The notes under the pieces: generated by a model
Seen by the model: only the letters and a program-made list of their open reading frames with translations
What the model was told of the DNA's origin: nothing
Databases searched by the model: none
In this document: positions 1 through 19,037 of the stretch, in pieces
Position numbering within the stretch: position 1 is the stretch's first letter
Layout: each line of letters starts with the position of its first letter
Virus record (IMG/VR): IMGVR_UViG_2711768037_000017
Span: 1 to 19,280 of that record
DNA: 19,280 nucleotides
Source: a virus
Taxonomy: Duplodnaviria > Heunggongvirae > Uroviricota > Caudoviricetes
Strand: one strand, 5' to 3'
Position numbers and translations under genes: made by a program

Positions 1-1158
1 ATGCTCACCGTTAAGCAAATTGAAGCAGCAAAGCCGAAAGAAAAACCATACCGCCTTCTCGATGGTAATGGCCTGTACCTTTATGTCCCTGTATCAGGGA
101 AAAAGGTATGGCAGCTTCGCTACAAGATTGACGGTAAGGAGAAAATCCTGACCGTCGGAAAATATCCGCTTATGACTTTGCAAGAGGCAAGGGATAAAGC
201 ATGGACTGCGAGGAAAGACATCTCGGTTGGCATCGATCCGGTAAAGGCGAAAAAGGCTTCGTCTAACAACAATTCCTTTAGCGCCATTTACAAGGAATGG
301 TACGAGCACAAGAAGCAAGTCTGGTCAGTAGGCTATGCAAATGAACTTGCAAAAATGTTTGATGACGACATTTTACCCATCATCGGCGGTCTTGAAATTC
401 AGGATATTGAGCCGATGCAACTACTGGAAGTAATCCGCAGATTTGAAGATCGCGGTGCAATGGAGCGAGCAAATAAAGCCCGCAGAAGATGCGGCGAGGT
501 TTTCCGTTACGCTATTGTCACTGGTAGGGCTAAATATAACCCGGCACCTGACCTTGCTGACGCCATGAAGGGATACCGCAAGAAGAACTTCCCATTTTTA
601 CCTGCCGACCAGATCCCGGCATTCAACAAAGCACTTGCAACATTTTCAGGAAGTATCGTATCGCTCATTGCGACCAAAGTTTTACGCTACACAGCCCTAA
701 GAACGAAAGAGCTTCGTTCCATGCAATGGAAGAACGTCGATTTTGAAAACAGGATTATCACTATCGACGCCAGTGTGATGAAGGGACGCAAGATTCATGT
801 TGTCCCGATGTCGGACCAGGTGGTTGAACTTCTCACTACGCTAAGCTCCATCACCAAACCAGTATCAGAGTTTGTTTTTGCCGGGCGCAACGATAAGAAG
901 AAGCCAATCTGCGAGAACGCGGTATTGCTTGTGATCAAACAAATCGGCTATGAGGGCCTGGAAAGCGGTCACGGATTCAGGCATGAATTCAGCACGATTA
1001 TGAACGAGCACGAATGGCCTGCTGACGCTATTGAAGTGCAACTGGCACATGCCAACGGCGGATCTGTGCGCGGGATTTACAACCATGCTCAGTATCTCGA
1101 TAAGCGCAGAGAAATGATGCAGTGGTGGGCGGACTGGCTTGATGAAAAGGTGGAGTGA
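1..1158 (+). CDS. int: Tyrosine site-specific integrase, IntS/P4 family (385 aa)
   Basis: Full-length ORF beginning at window position 1. N-terminus MLTVKQIEAAKPKEKPYRLLDGNGLYLYV is the characteristic start of argW-type prophage integrases (CPS-53 IntS, Shigella serotype-converting phages) as I recall them. The C-terminal catalytic region contains HGFRHEF and a downstream tyrosine (RGIYNHAQY). Confidence 0.93.
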   Translation: MLTVKQIEAAKPKEKPYRLLDGNGLYLYVPVSGKKVWQLRYKIDGKEKILTVGKYPLMTLQEARDKAWTARKDISVGIDPVKAKKASSNNNSFSAIYKEWYEHKKQVWSVGYANELAKMFDDDILPIIGGLEIQDIEPMQLLEVIRRFEDRGAMERANKARRRCGEVFRYAIVTGRAKYNPAPDLADAMKGYRKKNFPFLPADQIPAFNKALATFSGSIVSLIATKVLRYTALRTKELRSMQWKNVDFENRIITIDASVMKGRKIHVVPMSDQVVELLTTLSSITKPVSEFVFAGRNDKKKPICENAVLLVIKQIGYEGLESGHGFRHEFSTIMNEHEWPADAIEVQLAHANGGSVRGIYNHAQYLDKRREMMQWWADWLDEKVE

Positions 1159-1364
1159 TCCACATTAACCACTATCGGATAGTACAAAGCTTTGTGTGCC
1201 TCGTTCATGCCTCACATTACCTGGCAATCATCAAATTCACCAGAACGTTCATAAATCGTCTTTGTGATCTGCTTCACTGTTAGACGTAATACTTTTTGCA
1301 GTTATTTTATAATCATAGAAATGCTCATCATGAGCAGTGAGTTGGTGATCTGCGCTGGTAGCCC

Positions 1365-1373
1365 TGCTATAAT
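1365..1373 (+). promoter_or_regulatory. Candidate extended -10 promoter element (TGcTATAAT) for the acyltransferase gene
   Basis: TG-n-TATAAT at 1365-1373, about 20-30 nt upstream of the first ATG codons of the acyltransferase ORF (1392, 1404). No convincing -35 hexamer. Sequence pattern only. Confidence 0.3.
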
Positions 1374-1391
1374 CCTTTGAAATTTTATCTC

Positions 1392-1946
1392 ATGGTGTGC
1401 ATTATGATCTTTGAGGCGCAAAGTCTTTATTTATATTTTTTGTCTCTTTTAGCCGTTGTGTTATGTATTACACTATTGACACGATATAACTATTTTTCTC
1501 ACATCAACTTTGCAAGTAACAGGTATTTCTTTATAGACGGATTGCGTGGGATAGCTGCGTTCAGCGTTCTTATTAATCACGGCGCTCATACAATTATTAC
1601 CAATGGAGTTCAGCCCATATTTATAGACTTCACAAAATACTCCATCACAGGGAATATGGGTAGCTTCGGTGTACAGATTTTCTTTTGCATTACAGGATTT
1701 TTGTTCTTTGATAAATTAATAAAAGGAAATAATACATTTGACTGGAATAAATTTTATGTTGCTCGGATAAAAAGACTCGTTCCTCTATATATGCTTACTG
1801 CGCTTTTGGTGGCAATTTTAGCTATTATATTATCCGGCAGTTCAGCAAGGCTTAACTTTGTTGATTTTTCAAGCTTCCTAAATTTTTTTGGGTTTGGATT
1901 TTTGGGCACAGAAATCTTCATTGGCTCTTTTAACGCATCAGGATAA
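1392..1946 (+). CDS. Membrane O-acyltransferase (Acyl_transf_3/OafA-Oac-like), N-terminal portion, ended by an in-frame TAA; probable lysogenic-conversion gene, likely a pseudogene
   Basis: Translation contains the family motifs FIDGLRGIAAFSVLINH and RIKRLVPLY and is strongly hydrophobic. Very AT-rich relative to its neighbours. The ORF track starts at TTG 1377, which lies only 4 nt after the putative -10, so ATG 1392 or ATG 1404 is the more likely start. Stop TAA at 1944-1946 is in frame with the next ORF. Confidence 0.75.
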   Translation: MVCIMIFEAQSLYLYFLSLLAVVLCITLLTRYNYFSHINFASNRYFFIDGLRGIAAFSVLINHGAHTIITNGVQPIFIDFTKYSITGNMGSFGVQIFFCITGFLFFDKLIKGNNTFDWNKFYVARIKRLVPLYMLTALLVAILAIILSGSSARLNFVDFSSFLNFFGFGFLGTEIFIGSFNASG

Positions 1947-1952
1947 AATGCG

Positions 1953-2531
1953 GTGATATGGACTCTACCGTATGAATGGAGGTTTTATTTAATTTTCCCT
2001 CTATTATCGATTGCCATCGCAAGCAAGAGATATGGTATGTTTGCCATTTCCGCAGTAATGTTACTTGCGGCAAGAGACTTTATGACAGAATTTGTTTTGT
2101 GGCCATATTTTATAGTTGGCGCCTTAGGTGCATATATATTCAATAAATCTTATGTTAACATTGATGATAAATATTGGATATTCTCATTCATTTCTTTCAT
2201 AGCTATTTTTGTTATCTTCTGCTCTTCCGCAGACAGCTATGGACGAATCAGATTTGCATGCATTTCATTACTATTTATAATGGTACTTATAACTAAACCA
2301 AAAATATTTAAAATAAAATCATTAGTTTATTTAGGTGAGGCAAGTTATAGTCTTTATTTGCTGCATTTGCCTATCATGGCTATAGTAATGAGAACAATAA
2401 ATAATTTCTATAACCTATCGAGCATGTCTACTGTGAATTACACAATTTTGATAGCCTTTATTGCATCTCTGTGTAGCGTTATTTCCTGTATCTGTTTTAA
2501 GAATTTTGAGTGGAGATTCATTAAAAAGTAA
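1953..2531 (+). CDS. Membrane O-acyltransferase (Acyl_transf_3), C-terminal portion, in the same frame as the preceding ORF
   Basis: Same reading frame as 1392-1946 (1377 and 1953 are both divisible by 3). Translation carries the downstream family motifs WTLPYEWRFYLIFP (WSLxxE-type) and GEASYSLYLLHLP. ORF track start is GTG 1953. The two ORFs together are the length of a single acyltransferase. Confidence 0.75.
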   Translation: MIWTLPYEWRFYLIFPLLSIAIASKRYGMFAISAVMLLAARDFMTEFVLWPYFIVGALGAYIFNKSYVNIDDKYWIFSFISFIAIFVIFCSSADSYGRIRFACISLLFIMVLITKPKIFKIKSLVYLGEASYSLYLLHLPIMAIVMRTINNFYNLSSMSTVNYTILIAFIASLCSVISCICFKNFEWRFIKK

Positions 2532-2535
2532 CATT

Positions 2536-2553
2536 GCGGGGCGATGGCCCCGC
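2536..2553. terminator. Bidirectional intrinsic terminator between convergent acyltransferase and tailspike genes
   Basis: Perfect GC-rich inverted repeat GCGGGGC-gatg-GCCCCGC at 2536-2553. On the plus strand it is followed by ttgattt; on the minus strand by a U-rich tract a few nt away. It lies between the acyltransferase stop (2529-2531) and the tailspike stop (2564-2566). Confidence 0.6.
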
Positions 2554-2563
2554 TTGATTTCCG

Positions 2564-4762
2564 CTACGCTATATTAAGATTACCATATGTATTGTTTCCA
2601 AGACCATACCATGCCCAGTTTGTTCCTGATGCAGGAGTACCTGCATTGTGAATCATATCGCCTATATTTATCAGCACTTTCCCAGGGTATGTTGTAGTAG
2701 GAGCAGTGTCTATTCCAGCAGACACATCGGCAAAACGCCAACCACAGGAAACCATATCTGCGTTATCTCTAAATTTCTTAATTGAAAACGTGTATCTGTT
2801 TCCTCTATATATCATTCCAGCAAAACTAGGCCAGTCAATAAGTTGATTTACTGGTGAGTTTAAAGTGTTACTAAACTCATTATTTTCAATAACTGGTTCA
2901 TCGATACGCACACCCGAAGTTGATACTAGATATGTAGAATCAAAGTCGTTGTCAGAAATAATTGGAGCATAACCACCAATTTCACAACCTGTATTGCCAT
3001 GAACAAAATATGACTTATTCCCTCGGTATATAGATTTTCTCCATGTGGGCATTGTTACTTTTACGGCATCAGTTCTATCAAACTGGTTGTTTTCAATCAC
3101 AAGTCCATAACAATATGCAGACATCTGAGTTTCAGCATAATCATTTATGGCATAACCACCGCCTTTAAATGTATTTTTTGTTATTTTAATTCCATTGAAT
3201 GATGTTGAGTAGTCATTACTACCATTCCAGATAATTAGAATATGAGATGAAAATGTGCCATCCTCGTTCTGATCCCCAATGCTTATATTGCTATCAATAA
3301 CAACATTCTGCGCTGCAACACCGTTAGATTCACCTCCTATCTCAACGAATATTCCTTGTCCTGTTTTGATGTTATTCGATATAACTGCACCACCAGTCAC
3401 CCCCCAAGGAGTAATCCTAGACTGAATACTTATAGGGCTTATAAAGTGATTTCTTTCTGCAATTAAATATTTTGTTCTTGCTGAGCACGCAAAATCTTCA
3501 CCAAAAGTATGCCATTTTCTGCCTGTTCTGTACGTTTGGCAGTCAATCATCTTAGCAATTCCATTAAGATTTTTAGTGAAAAATGTATAATTTGTTACCA
3601 AATCAGTCCTTACATTGCTAAGAGTTATATCCTCATTTGGTATAGCACCGTCACCATCAGCATCTGCCATTACAAAGATTCTTGCAGCCAATACGTCAAT
3701 ATCATTAATAGATCCACTACTCCCCTCAAGTGCGAAACCAAACCAATTCTCTTGAGGGGTAAACGTGGTATCTGAAGGTCCAGTTGAAAAATTTGTGCAT
3801 GACTGGTTTAACTTTATACCATTAAATTTAAAGTTTTTGCAGTTGAATAAACCAAAGCAAACACGCTCAGCCTCACCATTTCCATCTGTATTTATATTTA
3901 CATCATTATCTGCGTAAACAAATAAATTATTTTTACCATTAATTACAATTGCTGTTTTACGTATAACACCTGCAGAGTCATGATATTGCTGGCTGATTTG
4001 GTAATTAAACTTTATCTCACCGGCGCTAAAACGTATTGCTCTAACACCACCAAATTTTGATATACAAGCGTTAACCGATGCCGTTGAATCATGCACTCCG
4101 TTAATATCATGTCCAGCCCAAACTGTATGTATGCCATCGAGCACACAATTCGAACGGATCCAGCAACCAGAGCCACCACCATCACTCTCACCAGTTCCCG
4201 CAAGGAAAGCAGCGAGCTCAGCATACGAACCATCCCACGGAACTGTGGGGCTAAATATGGTGATACCGTTGTGCTGAGATTTAGGCATGCTGGCATCCCA
4301 GTAAAACTGCCCGCCGCCAAAGTTGGTTCCTGGTACGTATCCAATTACATTTAATGTGTGATTCCCAGCAGGCTCGCTCATTAAGGTATGGATGTCAGGA
4401 ACATTCTCCATTCGCTGGCTAAACTGATCGGGATCATACTTCAGCACATTGGGAAAATAGAACTGCTGCGAACCATACGCATCATATACAGCCATGGAAT
4501 GGCCTTGCACAGTTACGAACTTGGCAATCTGTCCGTTATATACCGGATATCCGGCAGCGTTAATGATTATTGGTTGCGAAACAGGAACGTGAGAGCCGTC
4601 TTCGTTCTCTATATAAACCTGAATCTGGTTTTCTGAATTTACGGGGTCAGCGTCAATTTTACCGATATAAATTTTGCCATTGGCTACGGCTTTAAAAGAA
4701 CGAGCCATAGTGAAGAGTTGCGAAGGCATGCTTACCACAACATTTGCGGTGATATCTGACAT
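2564..4762 (-). CDS. Tailspike protein: P22-family N-terminal head-binding domain plus divergent C-terminal receptor-binding/depolymerase domain (733 aa)
   Basis: N-terminal ~115 aa ([42 protein letters not shown]...VLKYDPDQF) closely matches the head-binding domain of P22, Sf6 and HK620 tailspikes as I recall them. Start chosen at the internal Met (ATG at 4762-4760) with a GGAG Shine-Dalgarno 8 nt upstream. The 16-codon upstream extension in the ORF track is not present in homologues. The remaining ~620 aa is Gly/Asn/Ser-rich, consistent with a beta-helix receptor domain. Confidence 0.9.
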
Positions 4763-4883
4763 TTCATTGCTCCAGACGAATGATATGATGCAACCATGAT
4801 GTGATTGCATACCGAAATGGTACTATTGAGTATTTATCCAGTAGGTTACGATGCCATTCCACCCAACTGGTGAGGCATCAAGG
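4763..4883. promoter_or_regulatory. Divergent intergenic control region between tailspike and mnt (candidate Pmnt and Mnt operator)
   Basis: A 121-bp non-coding gap between two divergently oriented starts. Contains the inverted repeat ATGCAA-N11-TTGCAT (4788-4810) and AT-rich -10-like hexamers. By position it corresponds to the mnt/arc-ant control region of P22 immI. No operator could be identified with confidence. Confidence 0.35.
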
Positions 4884-5144
4884 ATGTACAGCAAATACGA
4901 CGAGGCGCAGTTTCACTTGAGACTTCCGCATGAACTCCACGCGAAAATTAAGCAGCGTGCGAAGATGAATAACAGGTCGCTGAACTCAGAGATAATTGCA
5001 GCGATTGAAGAATCATTGGCTAAACAAAGCTCTGCATCTGTTTACATTGACGATGCAGAGCGTATGGCAGAACAACAATCTGATATGGTTAAGAAAATTG
5101 TCTTTGATACGCTCAAAGAGCTATATAAAAAAGACAGCAGCTAA
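4884..5144 (+). CDS. mnt: Mnt-like ribbon-helix-helix (Arc/MetJ family) repressor (86 aa)
   Basis: C-terminal half DAERMAEQQSDMVKKIVFDTLKELYKK is nearly identical to the P22 Mnt tetramerisation region as I recall it (DAERLADEQSELVKKMVFDTLKDLYKK). The N-terminus has the RHH beta-strand/helix layout (QFHLRLPHELHAKIKQRAKMNNRSLNSEI). Start placed at internal ATG 4884 with a GAGG Shine-Dalgarno 8 nt upstream; the ORF track begins at 4851. Confidence 0.85.
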   Translation: MYSKYDEAQFHLRLPHELHAKIKQRAKMNNRSLNSEIIAAIEESLAKQSSASVYIDDAERMAEQQSDMVKKIVFDTLKELYKKDSS

Positions 5145-5164
5145 CCATCAGTTACGGAGGATTT

Positions 5165-5242
5165 ATGCAAAGAGATATGCTGAATATTGCGTTCTACATA
5201 TTTGGTTTTTGCACGTTCCTGGTGTTTGCGAAGCTATTCTGA
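5165..5242 (+). CDS. Hypothetical 25-aa hydrophobic peptide (MQRDMLNIAFYIFGFCTFLVFAKLF), possible small membrane protein or gene remnant
   Basis: ATG at 5165 is preceded by GGAGG (5156-5160) with 4-nt spacing, 21 nt after the mnt stop. The product is one predicted transmembrane helix. It overlaps the 3' end of the convergent gp16-like gene by 9 nt. Too short for the ORF track; entirely predictive. Confidence 0.2.
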   Translation: MQRDMLNIAFYIFGFCTFLVFAKLF

Positions 5243-7231
5243 CAACGCATCAGACTTGGCACCCTGAGTCAGGGCGTTAATGGCCTTTTGCGCCTGCTGC
5301 ATGGCTTTCTCAAACGCTGTTGATCCGCGTGGTGTGTTTGCCATTCGGAGCATTGCATTTCTGAATGGCTCGCTCTCATAGGCGCGAGTAAGAAGTCCGT
5401 AGCTTACCGCTGCGCCAGTTGTCGCCGGGTTCATTGCCGTCCCATACCCGATAATGAACGGGATGGTTTGCTGCCCTGTTGGTGTTGTTACTGCCGCTTT
5501 TGCAGCCTGCTGCGTGGATTGCAGGTAGTTTTTCAATCCTTTCAGATAAGCAGCGTCCTGCCCCTTAAATGTGATGCCAGTCTGGTTTTGCAGGATGTTA
5601 AGCTGTCGAAGGAACTGATCAGGGGAACCACCTGATTTCTCCATCGCTTTTCCAATGATGCCATTGCGCATTTGCGCCCTGCCAACACGACCAACTGAGT
5701 TATACAGCGTCTTAATTTCCGATTTGTTCTTGCTGAATAGCATGTTGTTGACAACTTCCGGCGTCAGGTCGCCTTTCATGAGAACATTCTTCAGCCTGGT
5801 ATTCTTTAGTTTCGCCGCTTCGTCAGCGTAGACGGCATTGGCCTGCTGATATTTACGGAGAGTATCGTTGCCAAGATTCTGACCAATGGCACCATTGATA
5901 TCGTCAGTCATTGCCTTGTAAACGCGCTGAATGGCAGCATCGGAACGGTTTGGTAACACTGGTCGCTCACCCTTCACGTCCATTCTGAACTGGCTGCGCA
6001 GGTCGCTTAATTGCTTCAAATCCAGAGTTACCGGACCATCAGGGCCAGCATTGCGAACAAGCTCATCACGATATGACTGAAGTTTTGAAATTGTCTCGTT
6101 ATCAGCTACCTTACCAAGCTTCTGCAGGTTAGATATTTCTGTATCAATCTGCTGAATTGCTCGCGCAGGCTGAATGTTTACTCCAGCCATAGCATTCTGA
6201 ACCTGCTCCAGTCGATTACCGGCGGCACGACGAATTCCTGATGTTTTCGCTTTAAGGCTGTCAATAACAACCGCTGGATCATACTCACCGAATTTATCAG
6301 CAAATCTCTGCACCAACTGGCTTCTCGCTTCCTGTTGCGTTGCTCTCATTCCGCTTGTGCCAGCTAGAGGGATATTTTCTGCTGTAGTCTGCGCCATTTT
6401 TCCGACGCGGGAAGTTGGTTGTAACAGGTCTGTGGTGTGCAGAGGAACTCCTTCACGCTCTGCAAATCTGATAGCCTGCTGAGCTTCTGGCGCGATAGCA
6501 CCACGAACGCCACGATAAGCAGCACCTAATCCACGTCCGGCAGCGTTAATAGCACCGCCAGCAAGTACACCAACGCCTAAATCGGTGGCGAGTGCTTCCG
6601 CATCATCTTTCGCACTATTTGCAGCAAGTGATCCAACTGCGTTTTCTGCTAGAAGGCGAGTTGCCCCCTGAGCAATTCGACCAGCAAGTGTTGGTGCCTG
6701 TGTTGCCGCTCTCTCAATGCCAGCAGGAGTGAGGTAAGGCAATGCCTCAGCAAATACCCTGCCCTCTGTAGTTTGTGGAGTCAGCGCGCCTTGCTGAAGG
6801 CCAAAGTCCTGCTCTAATCCCTGAGTTGTTACTCGTGGCGCTGGTTGATATGTCCCATCGCCAATTCCGAGTTTACCGCCAGCCCAAGCCGCCGCGCTTG
6901 TTACAGCATCTGCAACTGATGCAGGTATGTTTGCCACGTTCACGCCCGCCTGCACCAGTCCGCGACCAGTCTCTTTTACTGCTTCACCAAGATCAGACAT
7001 AAATCCACTTTGCTGTGGTTGTTGCTGTGCTACTGGTTGCTGTGTCTCCACTGGCTGCACAGATGGCAATGGATAGGCAGCATAGAAAGCTTGCTTAGCC
7101 TGCTCTGCATTTTCTCCGGCTTGCGGGGCAACGACTTCATTGAAGTATTGCTCCTGAGCCTGCGCTTTTTGTTCTGGTGCTAACGCCTGATACTGTGGAG
7201 AGGCGATAACATCTTTCCATGCTTTAGCCAT
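5234..7231 (-). CDS. Ejection (internal/injection) protein, P22 gp16-like (665 aa)
   Basis: Last gene of the late operon, in the gp16 position by synteny. Large Ala/Gln/Gly-rich protein. Its start overlaps the upstream gene's stop (TAATG at 7229-7233). Confidence 0.7.
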   Translation of the reverse strand: MAKAWKDVIASPQYQALAPEQKAQAQEQYFNEVVAPQAGENAEQAKQAFYAAYPLPSVQPVETQQPVAQQQPQQSGFMSDLGEAVKETGRGLVQAGVNVANIPASVADAVTSAAAWAGGKLGIGDGTYQPAPRVTTQGLEQDFGLQQGALTPQTTEGRVFAEALPYLTPAGIERAATQAPTLAGRIAQGATRLLAENAVGSLAANSAKDDAEALATDLGVGVLAGGAINAAGRGLGAAYRGVRGAIAPEAQQAIRFAEREGVPLHTTDLLQPTSRVGKMAQTTAENIPLAGTSGMRATQQEARSQLVQRFADKFGEYDPAVVIDSLKAKTSGIRRAAGNRLEQVQNAMAGVNIQPARAIQQIDTEISNLQKLGKVADNETISKLQSYRDELVRNAGPDGPVTLDLKQLSDLRSQFRMDVKGERPVLPNRSDAAIQRVYKAMTDDINGAIGQNLGNDTLRKYQQANAVYADEAAKLKNTRLKNVLMKGDLTPEVVNNMLFSKNKSEIKTLYNSVGRVGRAQMRNGIIGKAMEKSGGSPDQFLRQLNILQNQTGITFKGQDAAYLKGLKNYLQSTQQAAKAAVTTPTGQQTIPFIIGYGTAMNPATTGAAVSYGLLTRAYESEPFRNAMLRMANTPRGSTAFEKAMQQAQKAINALTQGAKSDALSE

Positions 7232-8619
7232 TAATCACCCCATAGTGAAGAAAAGTTACTGCTGGCTGCTGGCTGTGATACCTGTGCAGGTTGAGATTGC
7301 TGCCGCTGAGATTTACCAACATTAACGTTATATTGTTGGTTGTAATTGTTGGTGTATTCCTGAATCTCACGAATCGACTGCTGCATAGCCTCCGGGCTTG
7401 AATAGTCAACCTGCGGCATCCCCTGAAAATACATCTTCGCTTCTGCAACGGTGTTAATACCACTGGCACCCATGTCCCTTGCTGCTGCCACCCCCTGATT
7501 CTGCATTCTGCCCTGAATACGTTGTGCTGAGTTATATAACTGGCGCTGCTCTTTTCCTGTTAATCGGCTGCGAACATCAGCACCAATTGCCGGGTTACCT
7601 GCACCGCCTGTCATTCCTGTCATGAAATCGAGAGCAGAAGCGTCTGCATTTGCGATCGCGTCGATATCCTTCTTCATGGCATAGTTTTGTGCTGATGCAG
7701 ACGATGTTGCAGGCGCTGCGATTGAACTGGCAGGAACGCGAACCATATTCCCCTCGTTGTCGATGCCTTCGTAGAACGCATTAGCCCCAGCGCCGTGAAG
7801 TTTCCCGCCTACCGTTACAGTTCTGCCATCTGATAACTGAACTGTACGCTCATCATTACCAGCGGTTCCTCTTGTTGACGCTCTCTGCATTGCCAAATCC
7901 TGCCCGCGTCGCGCAGTAGAAGCAGATAAATCCTGACCGCGCATCGTGATGTTCTGACCTCGTGCTGTTAGCGCCTCTCCGGCCTGATTGCTGCGGATTG
8001 TCTCTGCCAGTCTGCCCCTGTCAATCTCACGACCAGCCATCTTGTCCTGAACATTGAAGTAATCAATCGGACCAAGAGCAGCCATTCCGAGGTGATCAAC
8101 AAACTCACCAAATCCTGAAGGATTCTGCTGATACATCTGAGCAACGTTGTTAGGGTCAACGCCGACGCGCGCCAGTTCCTTGGCGTTGTTTTGCAGCCAT
8201 GATTGCATTGCTTCTGGAGACGAGGCCGCAAGGCGTGCGCCAGCTGCTAAGGTGCCGATAGAATTACGCTGCTCTTCATCAATGAATCCCATGCCTTTAC
8301 GAACGGATTCAATCTGGTCTGGATATTGAGTAGCCAACTGACGCAAAGCACCGCGATCACCAGACGCATAAGCATTAGCGTATGCCTGCTGAAATTCTTT
8401 CTGCCGCTGAGCCTGCTTTTCCTGCTGAAACACCCCCGCAATACCTGAAAGGCCTTGCAAAGCAGTCAGCCCAACATTGTTAGCGCCTGAACGCTCAATA
8501 TCATTGTTCTGCCTGATAAGCTGAAGCGTATTGCCGATGTCATTTACGCTCGGAGCGTTTGAGTTGACGCCACCGATACCAGCCAACAATCCGCCGTTTG
8601 TTCCTTGCCAAGTAGCCAT
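7231..8619 (-). CDS. Ejection protein, P22 gp20-like (462 aa)
   Basis: Position and size match P22 gp20 (about 470 aa). Ala/Gln/Gly-rich, low-complexity composition typical of ejection proteins. Translationally coupled to the gp16-like gene. Confidence 0.75.
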
Positions 8620-8628
8620 GATTACCCC

Positions 8629-9321
8629 TTAAAACAACGAGCCAAGCAATCCGATACCAGCACCAATGCCAGCGCCCCAAGGCGTTGATGTTCCCAAAAG
8701 GCTGGCAAGACCTGCACCGGCAATCGCACCAGACGTGCCACCGCTAATTGCAGTCTGAAGACTTGATGGTTTATTGGCATTAGCAGCGGCAAGCGCTGCA
8801 CTTTGCTGTGCAATGCTGCTCATGTTGTTGGCGTATGTCTGCCCAGCGTTTGCCTGACCTTGCAGCGCACCAAGCCCAACGTTTGCCAGATTATTGTAAT
8901 TGCTCATCTGGTTTGATAACCACGACTGACCGAGAGTCGGAGCAATCGTAGCCAGTTGATTGCTTGTAGCTGTCGAACCAAGTCCGCCAGTCGCCTCCGC
9001 AGCAGCAAGACTCTGGTAACGAGCCTGACCTGCAAGGTCTTTATACTGCTGAGAGTTGTAATACTGATTAAGTGCCTGCCCCTGACCTTCTAAACTGGAA
9101 AGGTTCTGAAGCTGGTTAACATACTGCTCCGCAAGAGGCGTGAACGGAGCAAGGTTTTTCATGATCGTCTGCCACTGCTGATTTTGCAGGTCTGCTGCAT
9201 ACTTCTGAGCTTCTGCGGCATACTTTGCGCTTTTATCAGAACTGCCACCTTTCCCGCCTTTTTCAGGGCAATAAGGTTCCTCGCCGCGCAGTTTTCTGCC
9301 CAGCTTAAATGCATATAACAT
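8629..9321 (-). CDS. Ejection protein, P22 gp7-like (230 aa)
   Basis: Position and size match P22 gp7 (about 229 aa). N-terminus MLYAFKLGRKLRGEEPYCPEKGGKGG followed by an Ala/Gln-rich body and a Gly-rich hydrophobic C-terminus. Confidence 0.75.
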   Translation of the reverse strand: MLYAFKLGRKLRGEEPYCPEKGGKGGSSDKSAKYAAEAQKYAADLQNQQWQTIMKNLAPFTPLAEQYVNQLQNLSSLEGQGQALNQYYNSQQYKDLAGQARYQSLAAAEATGGLGSTATSNQLATIAPTLGQSWLSNQMSNYNNLANVGLGALQGQANAGQTYANNMSSIAQQSAALAAANANKPSSLQTAISGGTSGAIAGAGLASLLGTSTPWGAGIGAGIGLLGSLF

Positions 9322-9323
9322 GG

Positions 9324-9779
9324 CTATCTCCCGTGATTCAGGAATTCGATTAGTTCTTCGCGTGTAGCACTGTAAAATGTCACGTCATCCACGCCTTTGA
9401 AGTATTTCTTGATGGTTCCTACACGCTTAAGGCCAATCATTGCGCAGTAAATCTGCCCGTGGCGGAATTTGCGTGCGGCGAACGATGTGACGCACTGAAC
9501 GGTGGTGTTAGTCAGAATGTATCGCCAGAACGCCAGCCCGATTTCCTTGCTGAAGCCGCGAATCTCTGGCAGGTACATGGCGTGGCAATCGAATGTCAGC
9601 GGCTGAATCTCCTGATAGTAAACAATGCCGCCGAACTGCCCGTGCACGTTCACCTCAAAGTAACGGCATTCAGGTTTGTAGTCGTATCCATCACCGTTGT
9701 TGCTTCCGGCAATAATGTCAGGGTGATTTCCGACTGCTTCGATCAGGTCGATATTTCGCGTTGGTTTGAACTGAATCAT
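9324..9779 (-). CDS. Virion protein in the P22 gp14 position (151 aa)
   Basis: Assigned by synteny between the tail needle and the gp7-like gene. No motif recognised. Tightly packed against both neighbours. Confidence 0.6.
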   Translation of the reverse strand: MIQFKPTRNIDLIEAVGNHPDIIAGSNNGDGYDYKPECRYFEVNVHGQFGGIVYYQEIQPLTFDCHAMYLPEIRGFSKEIGLAFWRYILTNTTVQCVTSFAARKFRHGQIYCAMIGLKRVGTIKKYFKGVDDVTFYSATREELIEFLNHGR

Positions 9780-10627
9780 TACTGCTCCGCAATGATTTTG
9801 ATGGTTGTGGCAGTAAACGCCGCACCATTAGACTGAATGGTTAACGTGCTGCCATTTGTGGCAAGAAAGCCGTCTTTATCCACGCTGAAGAACGTAGCTA
9901 ACAGGATGTTATCGGTTGTTGTAGCAGAGTTGCGACTGCTGACCAACGTGTCAGGAACAGAGCCGGAAAAGGTTAGCTGCATTGACCTGTTGGCGGTTCC
10001 GCTGGGCCACGTGCCGACAATCGACAGCTTGAAGAACAGCGTTTTGTTCTCGTTGAACACAACCATCTTGTTGTTAACGGTGTCGAAGAATGGTGCCAAC
10101 GTTCCGGATGACGGCGTGAGCGTTTTCAGCAGGCTAACAAGGTTGGTCGGCGCTGTCGGGATGGTTACAGATACGCCAGAGTAAACAACCTCTGACTTCT
10201 TGCGAGTAGTGGCATACTCCAGAGCATCGATGCGCGTTTCATGGTCTGAAACCTGCGATTCCAGCGACTGAACTCTGGTATCAAGCGACGCAATATCGCT
10301 TTCATTCTGAGCTATTCGTGTTTCATGTTCCTGAAGAGTTGATTCTGCCTGGCTGATTCGCTCCTCATGATTAACAAGCGTTGCTTCCGCAGCAGAAATT
10401 CGCTGCTCATGGTCAGCGAGAATCACATCCTGCTCATCGTTCCTGACCTGTGCATCATAAGCGCCCTGTCCGGCCTCGTTGGCCTTGTTAGCCACATTAC
10501 CAACATCAGTACCCTGTGCAATAACGTACAGCAGATATGACTGCGAGAAGATATTACGCGGAAGGACTGATGTGTCGAGCCGTGTAGCCTGAATGATTAC
10601 CGGCACATTGAGATTCGAATCCGCCAT
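9779..10627 (-). CDS. Tail needle protein (P22 gp26 / Sf6 gp9 type) with C-terminal knob domain (282 aa)
   Basis: N-terminus [43 protein letters not shown] matches the conserved gp26 N-terminal domain as I recall it. The central region is a heptad-like coiled-coil repeat (HEQRIS, HEERIS, HETRIA, DTRVQS, HETRID). A ~130-aa Ser/Thr-rich C-terminal extension resembles the knob of Sf6-type needles rather than the short P22 tip. Confidence 0.85.
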
Positions 10628-12045
10628 TACTCAATCCTTATCTGAGCGCCAGACAGAGTGACTGGTGACTTCGTGATAACGCGCAATTTGAAGCCGACAT
10701 TTTTCCTGATGCGCCCGACTCGCTTCCACAAAACACGTTTGTCGTAAACGAACGGTTCATTCTGTTCAATCATCTGCTCACGTCCGTAATTTATGCCGTC
10801 AGTGGTTGCAGAGAGAAAAAGGCGGTCCGCGTACTGAGCAACACCCGTCGATGATTCCACCTCCAGATCAAAACATCTGGCGTTCTCAGCTTTGAAGAGG
10901 GGTGTAAACAACAGGTGTTCTTGCTGTAGCCCATACTGGCAGCTGATGTCGAACTGCAATTTCCCGGTCACGGACTCCAGCTTATCGCCGCACGTTATCT
11001 GATTGCCTTCGTAAATGAAGTCGATAGCGCGGTACACATCATCATACAGTCCTGTTTTCAGCACACACCATTGCGGACCATTGGCGCTTGAAGATGCATC
11101 GTACACGAGGACGTGACGCGGAAGATGGATAATCAGCAACTCATGAGCATCAAACCGCAACGATTCCATCACGCCATCAGCCAGTTCATCAGCAGTGTAG
11201 GAGCGGAGGATTTTCTCAATGCTCGCACTGGCGATTGATGACACCTGACCGGAGCCGATGATGTACACAGACGGCGCACCTGTTGCCGGATTGCTGATGA
11301 ACGCATATGAATCAGAGAATGGCGTTTTGCAGTAAGTCCCGGCAATGCCTTTCTGCACCATCAGCGATGGCTGGGCGACATACAAAGCAGCACCAACTGT
11401 GGTTGCACCAGTCAGGGAGAAATATTCAATCGTCGATGAACCAAAGCAGACGATGAAGTCTCGCCATGTGCCGATACCGATGATGCCGTCCGGCTGCGAT
11501 TCTGCGCGATATTGTGCGCTGTAACGGTCAGGATGCGATTCGTCTTCAAGGTCAGTGATAAACCATGAATCAGTTCCGTCTTTTGACCACGCATAACGCC
11601 CGCGTAAGCGCGTAATGTCACGAACAGAACCTAACTCATACTGCGTGAATCCGCTGTCTGTAGGCCAGTTTGAGACGGTTTTAACCGTGCCATCATAGCG
11701 GTATTCGACCAGTTTCCCGTTAACGCCTACCGCCTGTGATGTCCGACCATGCGCCATTGATACACGACCACTTCCGGCGACGTCACCGACTTCGCTTTCG
11801 CCTTTGTAGAGCTTGCCGCCACACACGCGATAAACAGCACTCTGCGCCATGTTGTACTCGACGCCTCGAGATACACCGTTCACATCAGAACGTTTGGCAA
11901 TGCCCGGGAATGAGCGAAGATATCCGCTGCTGTTCAGGATTTCTTTGGGTGTAGCCAACATATTCACTGGCAGATAGTCGATATAGTCGGCGTTTCGAAA
12001 GTCTTTGCCGACACCTTTCATAAGCGGAAGTTGCTGAATCGGCAT
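10627..12045 (-). CDS. Tail accessory (tail hub) protein, P22 gp10-like (472 aa)
   Basis: Same length as P22 gp10, and the N-terminus [49 protein letters not shown] matches my recollection of gp10. Position follows gp4 as in P22. Confidence 0.85.
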
Positions 12046-12054
12046 TTATTCACC

Positions 12055-12516
12055 TCACGTACTCGGATCATCTTTCTCGATGTAAAACCGATTCCACGTA
12101 AACGCGCTTTTGTTACCACTACCGCGAGGCATGTCATTTCGCCGCTCAAGTGGTGGTATTTTGGTTAAAGCGATACAGATTGTCTGATATGCACTGTCAG
12201 CAGCGGTAAGGAGAGCGTCTGACGGCTGAATGACGTTATCCATGCACACTTGCACAGCGAGTTTCAACGCGACGCCATCATTTGCCCATGCAGGGATACC
12301 TGAATCATCGTCAGGTAACGGCATGATGCCGTTTTCTGTATCAGCAAACTGATACCCAAGCTCGATACCTTTAGCCTGCCATGCTGCCATCATGTCTTCG
12401 AGGTCATTAATGGCATCTTCAATTGCCTGAGGGTCAGCATCTGTCAACGTGGCATTGGAATACAGCCCGGCTTTTCGTAAAGCCTTTAGAACGAGATCAC
12501 CCTTCGTTTTCGCCAT
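12055..12516 (-). CDS. Head-to-tail adaptor protein, P22 gp4-like (153 aa)
   Basis: N-terminus MAKTKGDLVLKALRKAGLYSNATLTDADPQAIEDAINDLEDMMAAW resembles P22 gp4 (KTKGDLV...ATLTD...DLEAMMAEW as recalled). ATG at 12516-12514 has an AAGG/GGAAG Shine-Dalgarno upstream. Confidence 0.85.
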   Translation of the reverse strand: MAKTKGDLVLKALRKAGLYSNATLTDADPQAIEDAINDLEDMMAAWQAKGIELGYQFADTENGIMPLPDDDSGIPAWANDGVALKLAVQVCMDNVIQPSDALLTAADSAYQTICIALTKIPPLERRNDMPRGSGNKSAFTWNRFYIEKDDPST

Positions 12517-12685
12517 CTTCTTCCGCCTTAGCCACTTTTTGCTTCGTTGCGGTTTCTTCAGGAGTTTTTACCCAACCTTTTTTCAGGTGAGATTTAACTT
12601 CTTCGTCATCAACAATGATGTAATCGACAGCAAACTGACCACAGGTGATCATGTTGCCAGGCTTATAGAGCATTGTTCGTGCCAT
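12497..12685 (-). CDS. Small hypothetical protein between coat and gp4 (62 aa, acidic C-terminus)
   Basis: Start moved to internal ATG 12685-12683, which has a GGAG Shine-Dalgarno 6 nt upstream. The longer ORF-track start at 12724 would lie inside the post-coat terminator hairpin. Product MARTMLYKPGNMITCGQFAVDYIIVDDEEV...EEDGENEG. Overlaps the gp4 start by 20 nt. Confidence 0.5.
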   Translation of the reverse strand: MARTMLYKPGNMITCGQFAVDYIIVDDEEVKSHLKKGWVKTPEETATKQKVAKAEEDGENEG

Positions 12686-12693
12686 TGTCTTCT

Positions 12694-12720
12694 CCCAATA
12701 AAAATGGGGCCGAAGCCCCA
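12694..12720 (-). terminator. Intrinsic terminator/attenuator directly downstream of the coat gene
   Basis: On the minus strand: UGGGGC-UUCG-GCCCCA (6-bp GC-rich stem, UUCG tetraloop) followed by UUUUUAUUGGG, lying 6 nt after the coat stop codon (12727-12729) and just before the Shine-Dalgarno of the next gene. Probably partial, since essential genes follow. Confidence 0.55.
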
Positions 12721-12726
12721 CCAAAA

Positions 12727-13980
12727 TTACTGCCCGGCAATAACGATGCCCGTATATTCAGGAACAAGTACAGAGCAACCGTACAGAGTGGTGAAACGAG
12801 CAGTGGTTACGCCTTTGATGTGGTCGAAGGCGTAAGACATGATCAGCGTAGCGCCCTGCTCGGTGGTTGCTGTCATTACCTGTGGACCCTGACCAGTCGG
12901 GAACGCCAGTTTGCCGTACATCAGCTCAACAGAACCATCAGCCCAGAACAGGTTAGCCGGTGCGGCATTTTTGTTGAGAATGGTAATTGCTGCACCATTT
13001 GCCGCGTTAGCATCAACGTTTGCATATGGTCGGCTGGCGACATCAGCGTTATCAGGCGGCAGAATTTTCGGGGAGATAGTTACTGTCGTTCCGCTTACTG
13101 CCAGAACGCGGAATACCTGCGGCTGCCCGGTGGTATCTTTGGTGATTTGGTGTACGGAATTCACGCCAGCAATGGTGAACGCATCGCCAACCTGCAAACC
13201 AGATGCAGATACCGTAATGGTCCCCTGTCGGTTATCCACTGGCATATCGTTGGCATCTTTCGCTTCAACCTTGTGCGCAGGTTCAGCCGCCAGCGTCAGG
13301 GAAGTTGCTGTACCCTTCGGAACACGACCAGAAATATCGGTCTTGTAGCTATCGAAGGACGCAACCGGAGGGATCTGCGCTTTTTCGTATGCTGTCAGGG
13401 TTGCACCCTGAGCATAGGCACGGTGACCAAGCTCGCCAGCAAGGTCTTTGTAGTTGAAGGGGTTCCAGAAAGAGTGACGGTTGATACCCTGAGGTACACC
13501 AATCGCCGTCATGGTGGCATCAATACCTGCCGCACAGTTCCACAAATCACGGCCCTGTGTTCCTGTGGTTGAGTCAGCCATCGTGATCACGTTAGTAGCA
13601 CGCTGCGTGACCATGGAAATCAGGTCAGAGTCAATCTGTGCAGCAAGGCGCATACCTGCAGCGCGACCAGCTTCAGTTTTATGTTCCGGGTCACGCATTT
13701 CACGCGCATCCAGAGTGTACAGTATGTTTTTCGGCTCCTTGAACACAGAAGGAACAAGGCGCTGAACCAGTGCTGTTGGCGTTTTGCCGCTGAGGTCTAG
13801 GCCTTCCTCAATGTTCATGTGGTAATGCTGCGGACGATACAGAACATCACCTGCTCGCTGCATTGCTGTATCACCGGGACGGAATTTTTTAGCGTTACGG
13901 GAAACTACGCAGGCGGCCTCAAAGCCTTCAACGTAGTTTTCGAACATGATTTCAAGGTCTTTTGCTAATTGGTTAGCCAT
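12727..13980 (-). CDS. Major capsid (coat) protein, P22 gp5 type (417 aa)
   Basis: Position after the scaffold gene and a size near P22/Sf6 coat proteins. Local similarity to P22 coat as recalled (NLFWADGS vs NVFWADDA; RPYANVDAN vs RAYANVNTS). Confidence 0.88.
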   Translation of the reverse strand: MANQLAKDLEIMFENYVEGFEAACVVSRNAKKFRPGDTAMQRAGDVLYRPQHYHMNIEEGLDLSGKTPTALVQRLVPSVFKEPKNILYTLDAREMRDPEHKTEAGRAAGMRLAAQIDSDLISMVTQRATNVITMADSTTGTQGRDLWNCAAGIDATMTAIGVPQGINRHSFWNPFNYKDLAGELGHRAYAQGATLTAYEKAQIPPVASFDSYKTDISGRVPKGTATSLTLAAEPAHKVEAKDANDMPVDNRQGTITVSASGLQVGDAFTIAGVNSVHQITKDTTGQPQVFRVLAVSGTTVTISPKILPPDNADVASRPYANVDANAANGAAITILNKNAAPANLFWADGSVELMYGKLAFPTGQGPQVMTATTEQGATLIMSYAFDHIKGVTTARFTTLYGCSVLVPEYTGIVIAGQ

Positions 13981-13998
13981 GCTTAATGCTCCGATAGG

Positions 13999-14892
13999 TT
14001 ATTTTTTTGCCTTTTTAGCGGCGAAATACGGCGTCCAGTCACCAGTTTCCAGCGCCTTGGCTTTCAGTTTGTCGAGGTTATTGATTACTGCGCCGTTGCT
14101 CCCCTTAACTGTCGGGGTTGTGGCTGCCGTGGTTTTTGCTTTTGGCATGATTCTGGCCTTCGATTCGATACGTTCCAGCAGACGACCAATTGCTACGGGG
14201 TTGGTAGCTTCTGCCAGTTGCTTGCGCAGTTCAGCGTTGCGACCGAGCGCCAGAACAACGATTTCCGGCTTCTCTGACTCAAACAGGATCGCGTTTTGTG
14301 TCTCGATGGGGATTTCCTCGAGTACGGCCTGTTCTGCTTCCTGATAGCCAGGAACCTTGAGAGCCTTAACACGTTGCTGATATTTGGATAATCGCTCTTG
14401 ATAAGCAGCCTGAAGCTCCTGCTCCTTCTGCTTGCGAGCCATCTCCTGTTGCTGGTATTTGCCGTTATCCTCTGCCCACTTAGCCATGCGTTGCTGGTAG
14501 ATTTCTTCATCGAAACCGATGTCCTCATCATCCAGTTTTGGCATTCGCGGTGGTTGAGTGATTACCGGCTGCTGCTCGACGGGTTTCTGAGACTGACGCA
14601 TCAGCTCTTTCAGCTCACGGTCTTTCTCTTTAATCGTCTTGCGCAGGTGTTTTACCAGTCCATGCTCTGCGCCATCTTCGCTGGTTGGCGAATCCAGCTT
14701 TTCGTCACCAAAGTAGAATTCCTGTTCTGATTCGTCGTCATCAGTTTCAGTAGCTTCCTCTGCATCATTGCCGGAGGACTCACTGCCATCTTCTGTTTCG
14801 ACTTCTTCAGCCAGTTCGACATCATCAGGAATCTGCTCTGACGCGTCGGTTTCGATTTCAACTTCTGGTGTGTTTTCTGCCATCTGGTCCAT
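13999..14892 (-). CDS. Scaffolding protein, P22 gp8-like (297 aa)
   Basis: Located between portal and coat. Highly acidic N-terminus, Glu/Gln/Lys-rich helical middle and a basic helix-turn-helix-like C-terminus (…LDKLKAKALETGDWTPYFAAKKAKK), the architecture of P22 scaffold. Size matches (P22 gp8 about 303 aa). Confidence 0.8.
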   Translation of the reverse strand: MDQMAENTPEVEIETDASEQIPDDVELAEEVETEDGSESSGNDAEEATETDDDESEQEFYFGDEKLDSPTSEDGAEHGLVKHLRKTIKEKDRELKELMRQSQKPVEQQPVITQPPRMPKLDDEDIGFDEEIYQQRMAKWAEDNGKYQQQEMARKQKEQELQAAYQERLSKYQQRVKALKVPGYQEAEQAVLEEIPIETQNAILFESEKPEIVVLALGRNAELRKQLAEATNPVAIGRLLERIESKARIMPKAKTTAATTPTVKGSNGAVINNLDKLKAKALETGDWTPYFAAKKAKK

Positions 14893-14982
14893 TTGTTACC
14901 CCTGTTTACTCGATGTTCAGCCCATCGGAAGGCAATAGGGTGCCAGGCCTCATAAAGACAGCCATTGCACGTTATGGGTTAA

Positions 14983-17181: not shown

Positions 17182-17182
17182 A

Positions 17183-18598
17183 TCAACCTACACCACAAGG
17201 AATTGAGTAACTGGAATAGTCGGGTTGCGCAGCCGACTCCGGGCAATGCATACACATCATCAGCGCATCAGCCAGGTTAGGAGATGGAATACCGAGCTTC
17301 TGCTTCATTTCTACCTTAGTCATAAGCTCCAGCTTCCCGTTGTTATTGAATTTGCGCTGAATCTGCGTCAGTTCTGCAAACAGCTTCTCCAGCATCTTCT
17401 CGCCTATCGCTTCTTTGTCGAAACTCAGCATGTCGTCGGGGTCTGCATACTCACCGTGAACAACCGCCCGATATGTCAGATACAGCCTGTCAGCCAGCGC
17501 GTAATAGAATTGCGCTCGCTTATTGCGAAATACATCGCCAATAGTGCGAACGTTGTCGCCCTGTACTACTTCATCAGCCCATGCTCCGGCCTGATACGGC
17601 GCATCTTCATCGAATGGCGATTCGCTGCCCTTGAACATCGTGGCGGTGATTTTCTTGCCGGAGAACGCTTCCGTTGTCTGTCTGCGTAGCCCGGCACCAA
17701 CACCATCACCATCCCACAGGTAATGGTCAGCGCCGTCTTCAATCGCCAGCGAAGTAGCCCAGTCAGCACCTTCATTGATGTCCATCAGCAGGCCTTCGGC
17801 AATGCGCTTAACTACCGAACCGTGGCGCGATGCATAACCTTTAGCATCTGGCCCTGTATCTGATGGGTCATGCGCAGAGACAACAGCGCCTTTCGCTTTC
17901 CATCCGAGTTTCTTGTGCGCATCGGTTGCAGCTTCAAGCCATTCACGTTTGATGATTGCCATATCACTTGCGCTTACTGGCTCACCAAGCCAGATGTGAC
18001 GATACAGTGTCGGGTTTCTGCGTTTACACTCTTCCATCTCCAGACGGAGAACTTCAGGAAAGTGCGGGTTGTCGGTGTAGTTCACCGTCAGCAGACAAAT
18101 ATCATCGGGAGGGTTTACTACGAATCGCTGATAGGTATCGTCGAGGATGTTTTTCGGGTTGAAGCTCACCCATATTTCGGAAAATGGCTTGCGGATGGTT
18201 GGTATCAGGATATCCCATGATTCCTTCGTTACCGCTTCCGCTTCCTCCACCCAGCAGATATCAATGCCTTCGAGCGATTTAATCTTCGTCGGGTTGTTTT
18301 TGATGCCGTAGAACATGAACTCAGCATTCGTCCCGAGATGACGAATCATGGAACGCTGAATTTCAAACTCAGCCGTATACCCTTCACGCTCTATGGTGTC
18401 TTCAAGCAGCCGGATTACCGAATCGCTGATACTGTTTTGCAGTTCACGAGCGCAGAGAATACGCACTGGCTGCCGACGCGCCGCTTCAACAAGCAGTCTC
18501 GCAATTGCCCATGATTTACCGCTACCTCGACCGCCTTTGGCGACTTTGTAGCGATGCGCCTCAATGAACGGTTCAAAGATAGGATTAATCGAGGTCAT
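17183..18598 (-). CDS. Terminase large subunit (471 aa)
   Basis: Walker A motif KGGRGSGKS near the N-terminus, a C-terminal nuclease-type region rich in acidic residues, and a position between small terminase and portal. Size equals the Sf6 large terminase (about 470 aa). Confidence 0.93.
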   Translation of the reverse strand: MTSINPIFEPFIEAHRYKVAKGGRGSGKSWAIARLLVEAARRQPVRILCARELQNSISDSVIRLLEDTIEREGYTAEFEIQRSMIRHLGTNAEFMFYGIKNNPTKIKSLEGIDICWVEEAEAVTKESWDILIPTIRKPFSEIWVSFNPKNILDDTYQRFVVNPPDDICLLTVNYTDNPHFPEVLRLEMEECKRRNPTLYRHIWLGEPVSASDMAIIKREWLEAATDAHKKLGWKAKGAVVSAHDPSDTGPDAKGYASRHGSVVKRIAEGLLMDINEGADWATSLAIEDGADHYLWDGDGVGAGLRRQTTEAFSGKKITATMFKGSESPFDEDAPYQAGAWADEVVQGDNVRTIGDVFRNKRAQFYYALADRLYLTYRAVVHGEYADPDDMLSFDKEAIGEKMLEKLFAELTQIQRKFNNNGKLELMTKVEMKQKLGIPSPNLADALMMCMHCPESAAQPDYSSYSIPCGVG

Positions 18599-19035
18599 TT
18601 TCCGAATAGAGTACTCATCGGTGATGTTTCAATCTGGATTGCGCCGCCGTCTTTGCCTGTTAGCTCGTGATCAACCTTGTCGCGCCATTTATCCTTCTGT
18701 CGGTTCTTAAGCCAGAAGATGGCAGCTGTTGTATCAGGCGGGTAATACTTCTCAAGAGGAGTTTCGACAATTCTGTTTTCAATAACACGAATATCGATGT
18801 CTGGAGCCACGAAGCCCATAGCGCGTTGATAAAGACGGTCACTAACTTCTGCATCAGCGACGGCCTTACCCTTTTTTATGGACTCCGAAAACTCAGGATA
18901 ATCAAGCTTCCACTTGTTAATAGTTGACTCACTGACTTCGAAGAAATCAGCAAGCTCTGCATCGGTGTAGCCCAGCAAGCACAGTTTGCGTGCCTGTTCG
19001 GCATACGCCTCTTGATACTTTGTTGGGCGCGCCAT
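18595..19035 (-). CDS. Terminase small subunit with N-terminal HTH DNA-binding domain (146 aa)
   Basis: Immediately upstream of the large terminase with a 4-nt overlap. N-terminal helix-turn-helix-like segment (LGYTDAELADFFEVSESTINKWK). Size typical of Sf6-type small terminase (about 140 aa). Confidence 0.8.
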   Translation of the reverse strand: MARPTKYQEAYAEQARKLCLLGYTDAELADFFEVSESTINKWKLDYPEFSESIKKGKAVADAEVSDRLYQRAMGFVAPDIDIRVIENRIVETPLEKYYPPDTTAAIFWLKNRQKDKWRDKVDHELTGKDGGAIQIETSPMSTLFGK

Positions 19036-19037
19036 GT

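Follow-up and report, generated by a model that had tools for sequence, protein, structure and literature searches.

We analyzed positions 1 to 19,280 of the IMG/VR virus record IMGVR_UViG_2711768037_000017 (Caudoviricetes), a stretch of 19,280 nucleotides hereafter called the window, which holds the tailspike gene of a P22-like temperate podovirus. The reading that we favor, with a probability of roughly 0.65, is that this spike is an endoglycosidase directed at the O6 O-antigen of Escherichia coli and that it is paired with a prophage O-antigen acyltransferase in one cassette. The gene is contained in a minus-strand open reading frame (ORF) at 2564..4810. Its start is almost certainly the ATG at 4762, since a GGAG motif lies upstream, the resulting N terminus (MSDITANVV) is as in the P22 and Sf6 spikes, and the RefSeq start in E. 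coli W is the same. The span of 2564-4430 that an initial annotation of this DNA had given to the receptor-binding domain corresponds to residues ~111-732 of the protein, the parts of which are as follows.

2564..4762, minus strand: tailspike gene of 732 codons plus a TAA stop at 2564-2566, defined by the ORF, the ribosome-binding site, and the RefSeq start of the identical W gene.
4770..4773, minus strand: Shine-Dalgarno sequence GGAG, 7 nucleotides upstream of the ATG at 4762, read off the sequence.
4421..4762, minus strand: head-binding (virion anchor) domain, residues 1-114, with KYDPDQF at its end, defined by PF09008 and the alignments with Sf6 gp14 and P22 gp9.
4151..4420, minus strand: linker and conserved neck, residues 115-204, ending in GSGCWIRS, defined by invariant columns and sister-spike identity.
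2843..4150, minus strand: predicted right-handed parallel beta-helix made up of residues ~205-640, the module for specificity and probably for catalysis.
2567..2842, minus strand: predicted C-terminal beta-rich domain, residues ~641-732 (approximate boundary), strand-rich, with a predicted local distance difference test score (pLDDT) of 74-95 and with conserved residues.

The protein is identical at 732 of 732 positions to WP_001280400.1, encoded by the argW prophage of E. coli W, and the gene is 100% identical to the W copy at the DNA level, with an unbroken ORF of 2199 nucleotides. Exact copies of the protein occur in 269 indexed assembly blocks. The annotation of WP_001280400.1 reads only "phage head-binding domain-containing protein," and no mention of WP_001280400 was found in the literature. 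The sequence is already present in databases, where it has no functional name, and the kind of protein is classical.

The lysogens among the complete genomes that carry this spike or a sister version were found to have the O6 genotype. E. coli W is an O6 strain (PMC3032704), and in the RefSeq annotation its rfb cluster contains O6-family wzx and wzy genes. DNA of the helix was detected in 6 records among 5426 complete genomes, namely in the W lineage (W twice, B-766, and two records labeled DH5alpha) and in E423. The E423 helix (NZ_CM173464.1, 9000-12285) is 98-99% identical and lies in a decayed thrW prophage, and the O6 wzx/wzy are present in this genome. Sister helices are carried by JKHS016 (prophage at dacD) and 2017-02-2CC (remnant at torT), both of which are O6 by direct annotation. 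All 12 complete E. coli genomes matching the receptor-domain query (neck plus related helix) carry the O6 wzx/wzy, a gene pair detected in 154 of the 5426 genomes (2.8%). The carriers use four attachment sites (argW, thrW, dacD, and torT) and therefore represent at least four independent acquisitions, for which the chance expectation of all being O6 is about 0.028^4 = 6e-7. The two records labeled "strain DH5alpha" (NZ_CP026085.1 and NZ_CM135829.1) contain the O6 cluster and the W argW prophage with an identical spike; they look like mislabeled members of the W lineage.

A second line of evidence is provided by lytic phages. The best phage homologs of the domain share 35-42% identity over ~98% of its length, and none of them is biochemically characterized; close identity to a characterized tailspike of known specificity was looked for and not found. 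Residues 117-732 match phrog_24092 (phiEB49 gp24/ACG-M12 type) with E=1.9e-129, and residues 205-732 alone do so with E=2e-95; in BLASTP, phage spikes of this type are 38-39% identical over ~620 residues. The helices of phiEB49, UALMA_PCEc3, and the Kagunavirus 536P11 are 35-39% identical over ~98% of residues 118-732. Phage phiEB49 (Drexlerviridae, Lindendrivevirus according to its record) was isolated on CFT073 and UALMA_PCEc3 on ATCC 25922, and the record of 536P11 names no host, strain 536 being inferred from the phage name. Both ATCC 25922 and 536 carry the O6 wzx/wzy, of an allele group other than that of the lysogens. Furthermore, CFT073 mutants in waaL, wzy, or waaG do not support plating of phiEB49, complementation of waaG and wzy reverses this defect, and the phage has no need of the K2 capsule, which even hinders it (PMC12488582). 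The spike superfamily comprises at least three clades that are 35-40% identical to each other, each with an O6-linked member. A survey of the specificity of E. coli receptor-binding proteins covers fourteen serogroups, and O6 is not among them (PMC10408124); no tailspike assigned to O6 was found in this survey or in the literature searched, which also yielded no mention of phage vB_CfrS_K1M or of phages 536P11, T147, and LF31. The specificity had been left unassigned in the initial annotation, which is correct insofar as there is no characterized match, but comparison across genomes and phages indicates the O6 O-antigen.

The third line of evidence extends to other genera. Versions of the helix with 90-94% identity occur in Citrobacter freundii and versions with 72-75% identity in Salmonella; besides E. 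coli, the spike family is represented in Salmonella, Citrobacter, and Morganella. Homologs of the O6 Wzy are limited to Salmonella, Citrobacter, Enterobacter, and Morganella. They are ~60% identical in Salmonella (one of them in arizonae 40:z4,z23:-), in Citrobacter freundii, C. portucalensis, and C. braakii, and in Enterobacter hormaechei, and 41% identical in Morganella. This co-distribution of Wzy and spike is hard to explain otherwise and therefore argues for the O-antigen as the receptor. The named Salmonella carriers, which span all three spike clades, are Johannesburg, Millesi, Bijlmer, Bukavu, 1,40:g,z51:-, and 40:-:1,5; no open paper on the structure of the Salmonella O40 antigen was found.

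The spike is modular. Residues 1-113 align with the complete Pfam Head_binding model (PF09008; E=6.7e-66, 220 bits versus a cutoff of 24), and KYDPDQF occupies residues 108-114. In a phmmer search of all PDB chains, the best match was Sf6 gp14 (7sg7), with E=1e-63 over residues 1-116, and P22 gp9 matched the anchor with an E of about 1e-49. The head-binding domain of the P22/Sf6 type and the module junction at KYDPDQF that the initial annotation had proposed are thus both borne out, the alignments with P22 and Sf6 ending at residues 116-117. Past residue 117, the same search returned only a weak match to WceF, covering residues 7-167; homology to the helices of P22 gp9 or Sf6 gp14 was not detected past the junction, with phmmer and profile alignments stopping at residues 116-130. 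Residues 1-114 constitute the domain by which the spike is plugged into the tail hub.

The sequence had been described as diverging directly after KYDPDQF. This holds for the divergence from P22 and Sf6, but residues 115-204 are conserved. In JKHS016 and 2017-02-2CC, whose tailspikes belong to sister P22-like prophages of E. coli, protein identity is ~100% up to about residue 200 and drops to 20-40% right after GSGCWIRS (residues 197-204), and we therefore place a second exchange junction at this point. In an alignment of 47 homologs, the densest invariant columns were those of residues 139-222. The neck DNA (~220-260 bases) is 92-98% identical in six other genomes with differing helices, and a neck of 40-70% identity precedes other helices in Pseudomonas and Paenibacillus proteins; the neck is thus common to different helices and different anchors. 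Judged from these alignments, the spike has two nested exchange points, one at KYDPDQF after the anchor and one at the end of the neck before the helix, and the specificity module proper starts at about residue 205 (residues ~205-732, window positions 2567-4150). The neck alone gave only a sub-threshold motif match in the PDB, to the spike of Acinetobacter phage Fri1 (E=0.31), and residues 86-208 were poorly modeled, with low pLDDT, in the monomer prediction. High conservation combined with low model confidence would fit an intertwined trimeric element. The neck is a probable recombination hotspot, and its sequence and that of KYDPDQF may serve as homologous crossover points that move the cassette between phage backbones.

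The monomer structure prediction had a mean pLDDT of 78.9 and a predicted template modeling score of 0.72. Residues 210-732 were mostly modeled at pLDDT >85, with short strands spaced as in a parallel beta-helix and, after these, the strand-rich C-terminal domain, and a right-handed beta-helix is confidently predicted for residues ~210-732. Structure prediction and fold comparison therefore agree with the earlier assignment of a beta-helix, depolymerase-like receptor domain. Sequence and profile searches of the PDB also upheld the absence of a match to the receptor domains of P22, Sf6, and HK620, the three that were compared; neither phmmer nor profile searches matched the helix to the HK620 receptor domain or to any other solved structure. 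The PDB profile search with the 47-sequence alignment returned the anchor domains and a marginal GH110 match (E=0.004), with no template for the helix. Resemblance of the helix to known enzymes is at the level of the fold only (13-18% identity), and its likeness to GH110 alpha-1,3-galactosidases (8yk2, 9beh, and 9i4f) is at most level with that to lyases, epimerases, and adhesins of the same fold, so that GH110 membership is not claimed. The sialidase beta-propeller of endosialidase spikes (CUS-3/K1F type) was not found in the tailspike. The model thus describes a beta-helix of the depolymerase kind that has no solved or characterized close relative.

Conservation within the module is consistent with catalysis. 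Nine acidic residues (D262, D287, E299, D331, E338, E346, D367, E422, and E474) are invariant or nearly so across the clades, and in the predicted structure several conserved Asp and Glu residues are spaced roughly one helix rung apart at strand ends. Such an acidic stripe fits what is expected of a catalytic groove. In the C-terminal domain, the alignment revealed G674, P688, K695, G701, and D702 as conserved.

The characterized spikes of the P22 family (P22, Sf6, and HK620) are endoglycosidases on their own antigens, and binding and cleavage of the O-antigen are predicted here by analogy with them. According to the proposed mechanism, residues ~205-732 would bind the E. coli O6 O-antigen, and close homologs would bind related Salmonella O:40-type and Citrobacter antigens; the spike would cleave the O6 antigen as an endoglycosidase, allowing the virion to work down the lipopolysaccharide layer to the outer membrane. 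The O6 backbone contains an alpha-GalNAc-(1-3)-Man linkage, which together with the faint resemblance to GH110 (alpha-1,3-galactosidase) gives no more than a hint of the bond that would be cleaved. The O6 repeat is a neutral unit of five sugars with one branch (PMC8244359); this rules out a lyase mechanism and makes a hydrolase the likely chemistry.

It is improbable, although worth weighing, that the spike binds O6 without being an endoglycosidase, acting instead as a non-cleaving adhesin or through another chemistry, for example, by removing or requiring an O-acetyl or glucosyl substituent. No signature of a glycoside hydrolase family was found: local Pfam searches gave Head_binding only, and the precomputed matches gave the generic PF27114 (Phage_tail_beta), which is present on the identical protein and on nearly all homologs. 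This, the marginal nature of the GH110 profile match, and the different O-antigen modification genes that adjoin the sister spikes (a 367-amino-acid acyltransferase plus gtrABC in JKHS016 and a 653-amino-acid acyltransferase in 2017-02-2CC) are in line with such a function. However, the activity of the characterized P22-family spikes, the exclusion of a lyase, and the (nearly) invariant acidic residues across helices that are otherwise 30-40% identical all argue for the endoglycosidase, and Pfam detected no SGNH domain, which known tailspike deacetylases use.

The second component of the favored reading is the gene that converges with the tailspike gene, and the features concerned are as follows.

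1..1158, plus strand: intS-type integrase (end of an argW-integrating prophage), beside tRNA-Arg in the W annotation and with the same layout in other assemblies.
1404..2531, plus strand: O-antigen acyltransferase (Acyl_transf_3), with two Pfam half-matches at profile positions 3-119 and 125-320 of 326, convergent with the tailspike gene.
2536..2553, no strand: perfect GC-rich hairpin of 7 GC pairs, lying where the tailspike and acyltransferase genes converge and scored as terminator-like in either orientation.
4851..5144, plus strand: Mnt/Arc-type ribbon-helix-helix repressor (PF03869 Arc, E=1e-14; PF11423 Repressor_Mnt, E=3e-14), annotated in W as "Arc family DNA-binding protein."

The tailspike gene stands at the end of a virion module, after the genes for the gp7, gp20, and gp16 ejection-protein homologs. 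PHROG, Pfam, and the W annotation identify the neighboring ORFs as a P22-like tail/ejection module, which contains these homologs together with the needle knob, gp10, gp4, coat, and portal. The Mnt-like gene, which combines the Arc fold with the Mnt C-terminal motif, lies directly upstream of the tailspike gene and is divergent from it. Compared to E. coli W, the window contains 2 base differences over positions 1200-5300, and the flanks are 94-98% identical. Positions 1-12051 as a whole are 97.6% identical to the W prophage, and positions 12050-19030 (gp4-like, coat, scaffold, portal, and terminase genes) have no DNA similarity to it, which places a clear mosaic boundary near 12050. Because the cassette is nearly identical to that of W, the flanks have diverged, and the head genes are unrelated, the window appears to represent a different mosaic phage with the same acyltransferase-tailspike-mnt cassette. 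Outside this cassette, the window was identical to none of the complete genomes and to none of four assembly contexts. In three of these four contexts, the exact tailspike is located between the Mnt-like gene and an intact 375-amino-acid acyltransferase beside intS and argW; the contig of the fourth ends just past the tailspike gene. The content of guanine plus cytosine is 32-39% over positions 1500-4000 (acyltransferase and helix part of the spike gene) compared to ~50% elsewhere, and 44-47% in the neck and anchor (4150-4762). The tailspike and the modifying gene would thus move together as one low-GC cassette.

The only phage match of the acyltransferase was OacB of Sf101 (27% identity). Its place is occupied by gtrABC in E423 and by the modification genes named above in JKHS016 and 2017-02-2CC. 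The convergent acyltransferase is likely the seroconversion partner of the spike: it may modify the same O-antigen after lysogeny, so that the lysogen would stop adsorbing phages of this type. In the window, it is split by a single T-to-A change that converts the TTA codon of Leu181 into TAA at 1944-1946, as seen by comparison with the intact 375-amino-acid W gene, and it is intact in all three other assembly contexts that reach past the tailspike.

Several points weigh against the O6 reading. The acyltransferase is inactivated in the window, so that the immunity half of the model is off here. The O6 typing covers the 12 carrier genomes and not the window's own host, and all 12 belong to one 22-genome wzx/wzy allele group, so that the association could be inflated by host phylogeny. 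For phiEB49, dependence on O6 was observed with the whole phage rather than with gp24, which is only 38% identical. In the Kauffmann-White scheme the named Salmonella carrier serovars are all O:40, but one Salmonella member is houtenae 43:z4, which is not O:40.

That the prophage is defective and the gene a relic within it, no longer functional and intact only by accident, is unlikely. The nonsense mutation in the adjacent acyltransferase would fit this explanation, as would the state of related prophages: the E423 spike gene is interrupted by ISApl1 in its 5' end and the ejection-protein genes of this prophage are truncated, and both the JKHS016 prophage (portal and coat genes fused as fragments) and the 2017-02-2CC prophage (spike abutting replication genes) are partly deleted. 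The gene of the window, in contrast, has an unbroken ORF with a good ribosome-binding site and complete DNA identity to the W copy, the virion genes from terminase to tailspike are present as a full, intact set, and the exact protein is retained across the many assembly blocks mentioned above. Moreover, LY180, KO11FL, SL112, AQ15, and HBUT-L have the W-type O6 wzx-wzy allele but no match to the spike. LY180 and KO11FL are known W derivatives, and their lack of the spike is compatible with a live prophage having excised; these lineages appear to have lost the prophage, which would fit an excision-competent element.

Least likely of all is a receptor other than the O-antigen, such as colanic acid, a capsule, or another exopolysaccharide, with the O6 association resulting from the shared ancestry of a few host lineages: the confinement of the 12 carriers to a single allele group, the match of the whole protein to phrog_8280 ("tail spike protein with colonic acid degradation activity," E=4e-102), and the weak match to the stewartan-degrading Pantoea WceF (6tgf) are compatible with it, but the first is countered by the lytic relatives isolated on O6 strains of the other allele group, the second is due to the anchor (residues 205-732, covering just the helix module, matched only phrog_24092, and the neck alone did not match phrog_8280), and the third ends at residue 167. 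We reject colanic acid, the target suggested by phrog_8280, since the helix alone has no such match and the restriction to O6 hosts would be left unexplained; it is presumably made by nearly all E. coli and would not confine lysogens to 2.8% of the genomes. In addition, the co-distribution with Wzy across genera is specific to the O-antigen, W is reported to have no K antigen (PMC3032704), and phiEB49 can do without the K2 capsule, which is a hindrance to it (PMC12488582).

The O6 reading can be extended to a more speculative proposal, which we hold only tentatively and consider rather doubtful. All helices of a deep spike superfamily might share one target, O6 together with its Salmonella O:40 and Citrobacter counterparts, and might have kept to this serogroup while diverging to 20-40% identity. 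This divergence might be driven by the acetylation and glucosylation that the same prophages install beside the spike gene, each clade reading a differently decorated O6, and the neck might be the crossover site at which cassettes of helix and modification genes pass from genus to genus and between the anchors of podoviruses, siphoviruses, and others.

Serogroup O6 is common among uropathogenic and enterotoxigenic E. coli, and the probiotic and industrial strain W and the reference strain ATCC 25922 belong to it as well. If validated, an O6 spike would be useful for O6 detection reagents, for phage retargeting, and for understanding phage resistance of pathogens of the sequence type 73 (ST73) kind. 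The locus illustrates compactly how genes for recognizing and for modifying a receptor travel together in nature, with two nested exchange junctions, and one and the same helix is passed among anchors of the P22-like, T1-like, Kagunavirus, and other kinds. The general view of tailspikes is unchanged, and one specificity is filled in. What is added is a predicted, well-supported assignment to the O6 serogroup, the nested junctions, and the cross-genus link to an O6-type Wzy.

Among known systems, Sf6 offers a close parallel. Its spike gp14, an endorhamnosidase (7sg7/7ukj), has the same anchor and likewise a beta-helix receptor module after KYDPDQF, and Sf6 has the same order of tailspike, O-antigen acyltransferase, and integrase region, so that receptor recognition is combined with modification of the receptor in the lysogen. 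In contrast to the present spike, gp14 lacks the conserved neck of ~90 residues and shows no similarity after residue 116, the Sf6 Oac has no detectable tblastn match to the acyltransferase of the window, and the target of Sf6 is the rhamnose backbone of Shigella flexneri rather than the proposed E. coli O6. P22 gp9 (2xc1 and 1lkt) shares the head-binding domain, the genome position after the ejection-protein genes, and an Mnt-type repressor beside the spike gene, whereas its receptor module is unrelated in sequence and, unlike in P22 immI, no ant or arc genes lie between mnt and the spike gene in the window. The HK620 tailspike (2vji), an endo-N-acetylglucosaminidase acting on O18A1, differs in serogroup and resembles the helix only in fold, with 13% identity and no sequence match. 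The spikes of phiEB49 (gp24), ACG-M12, CEB_EC3a, and UALMA_PCEc3 (phrog_24092) and of 536P11 are homologous in neck, helix, and C-terminal domain and belong to phages with O6 hosts. These phages, however, are lytic, their spikes have a siphovirus N terminus of 330-390 residues in place of the head-binding domain, and at 35-39% identity their fine specificity may differ. The closest helix homologs outside E. coli are the spikes of Citrobacter freundii (WP_233595131.1, P0003) and Salmonella enterica (P0011 cluster); in the Citrobacter spikes a PF18668 (TSP1/gp66-type) anchor replaces the head-binding domain, and these hosts belong to other genera, with an O-antigen polymerase that is ~60% identical to the O6 Wzy.

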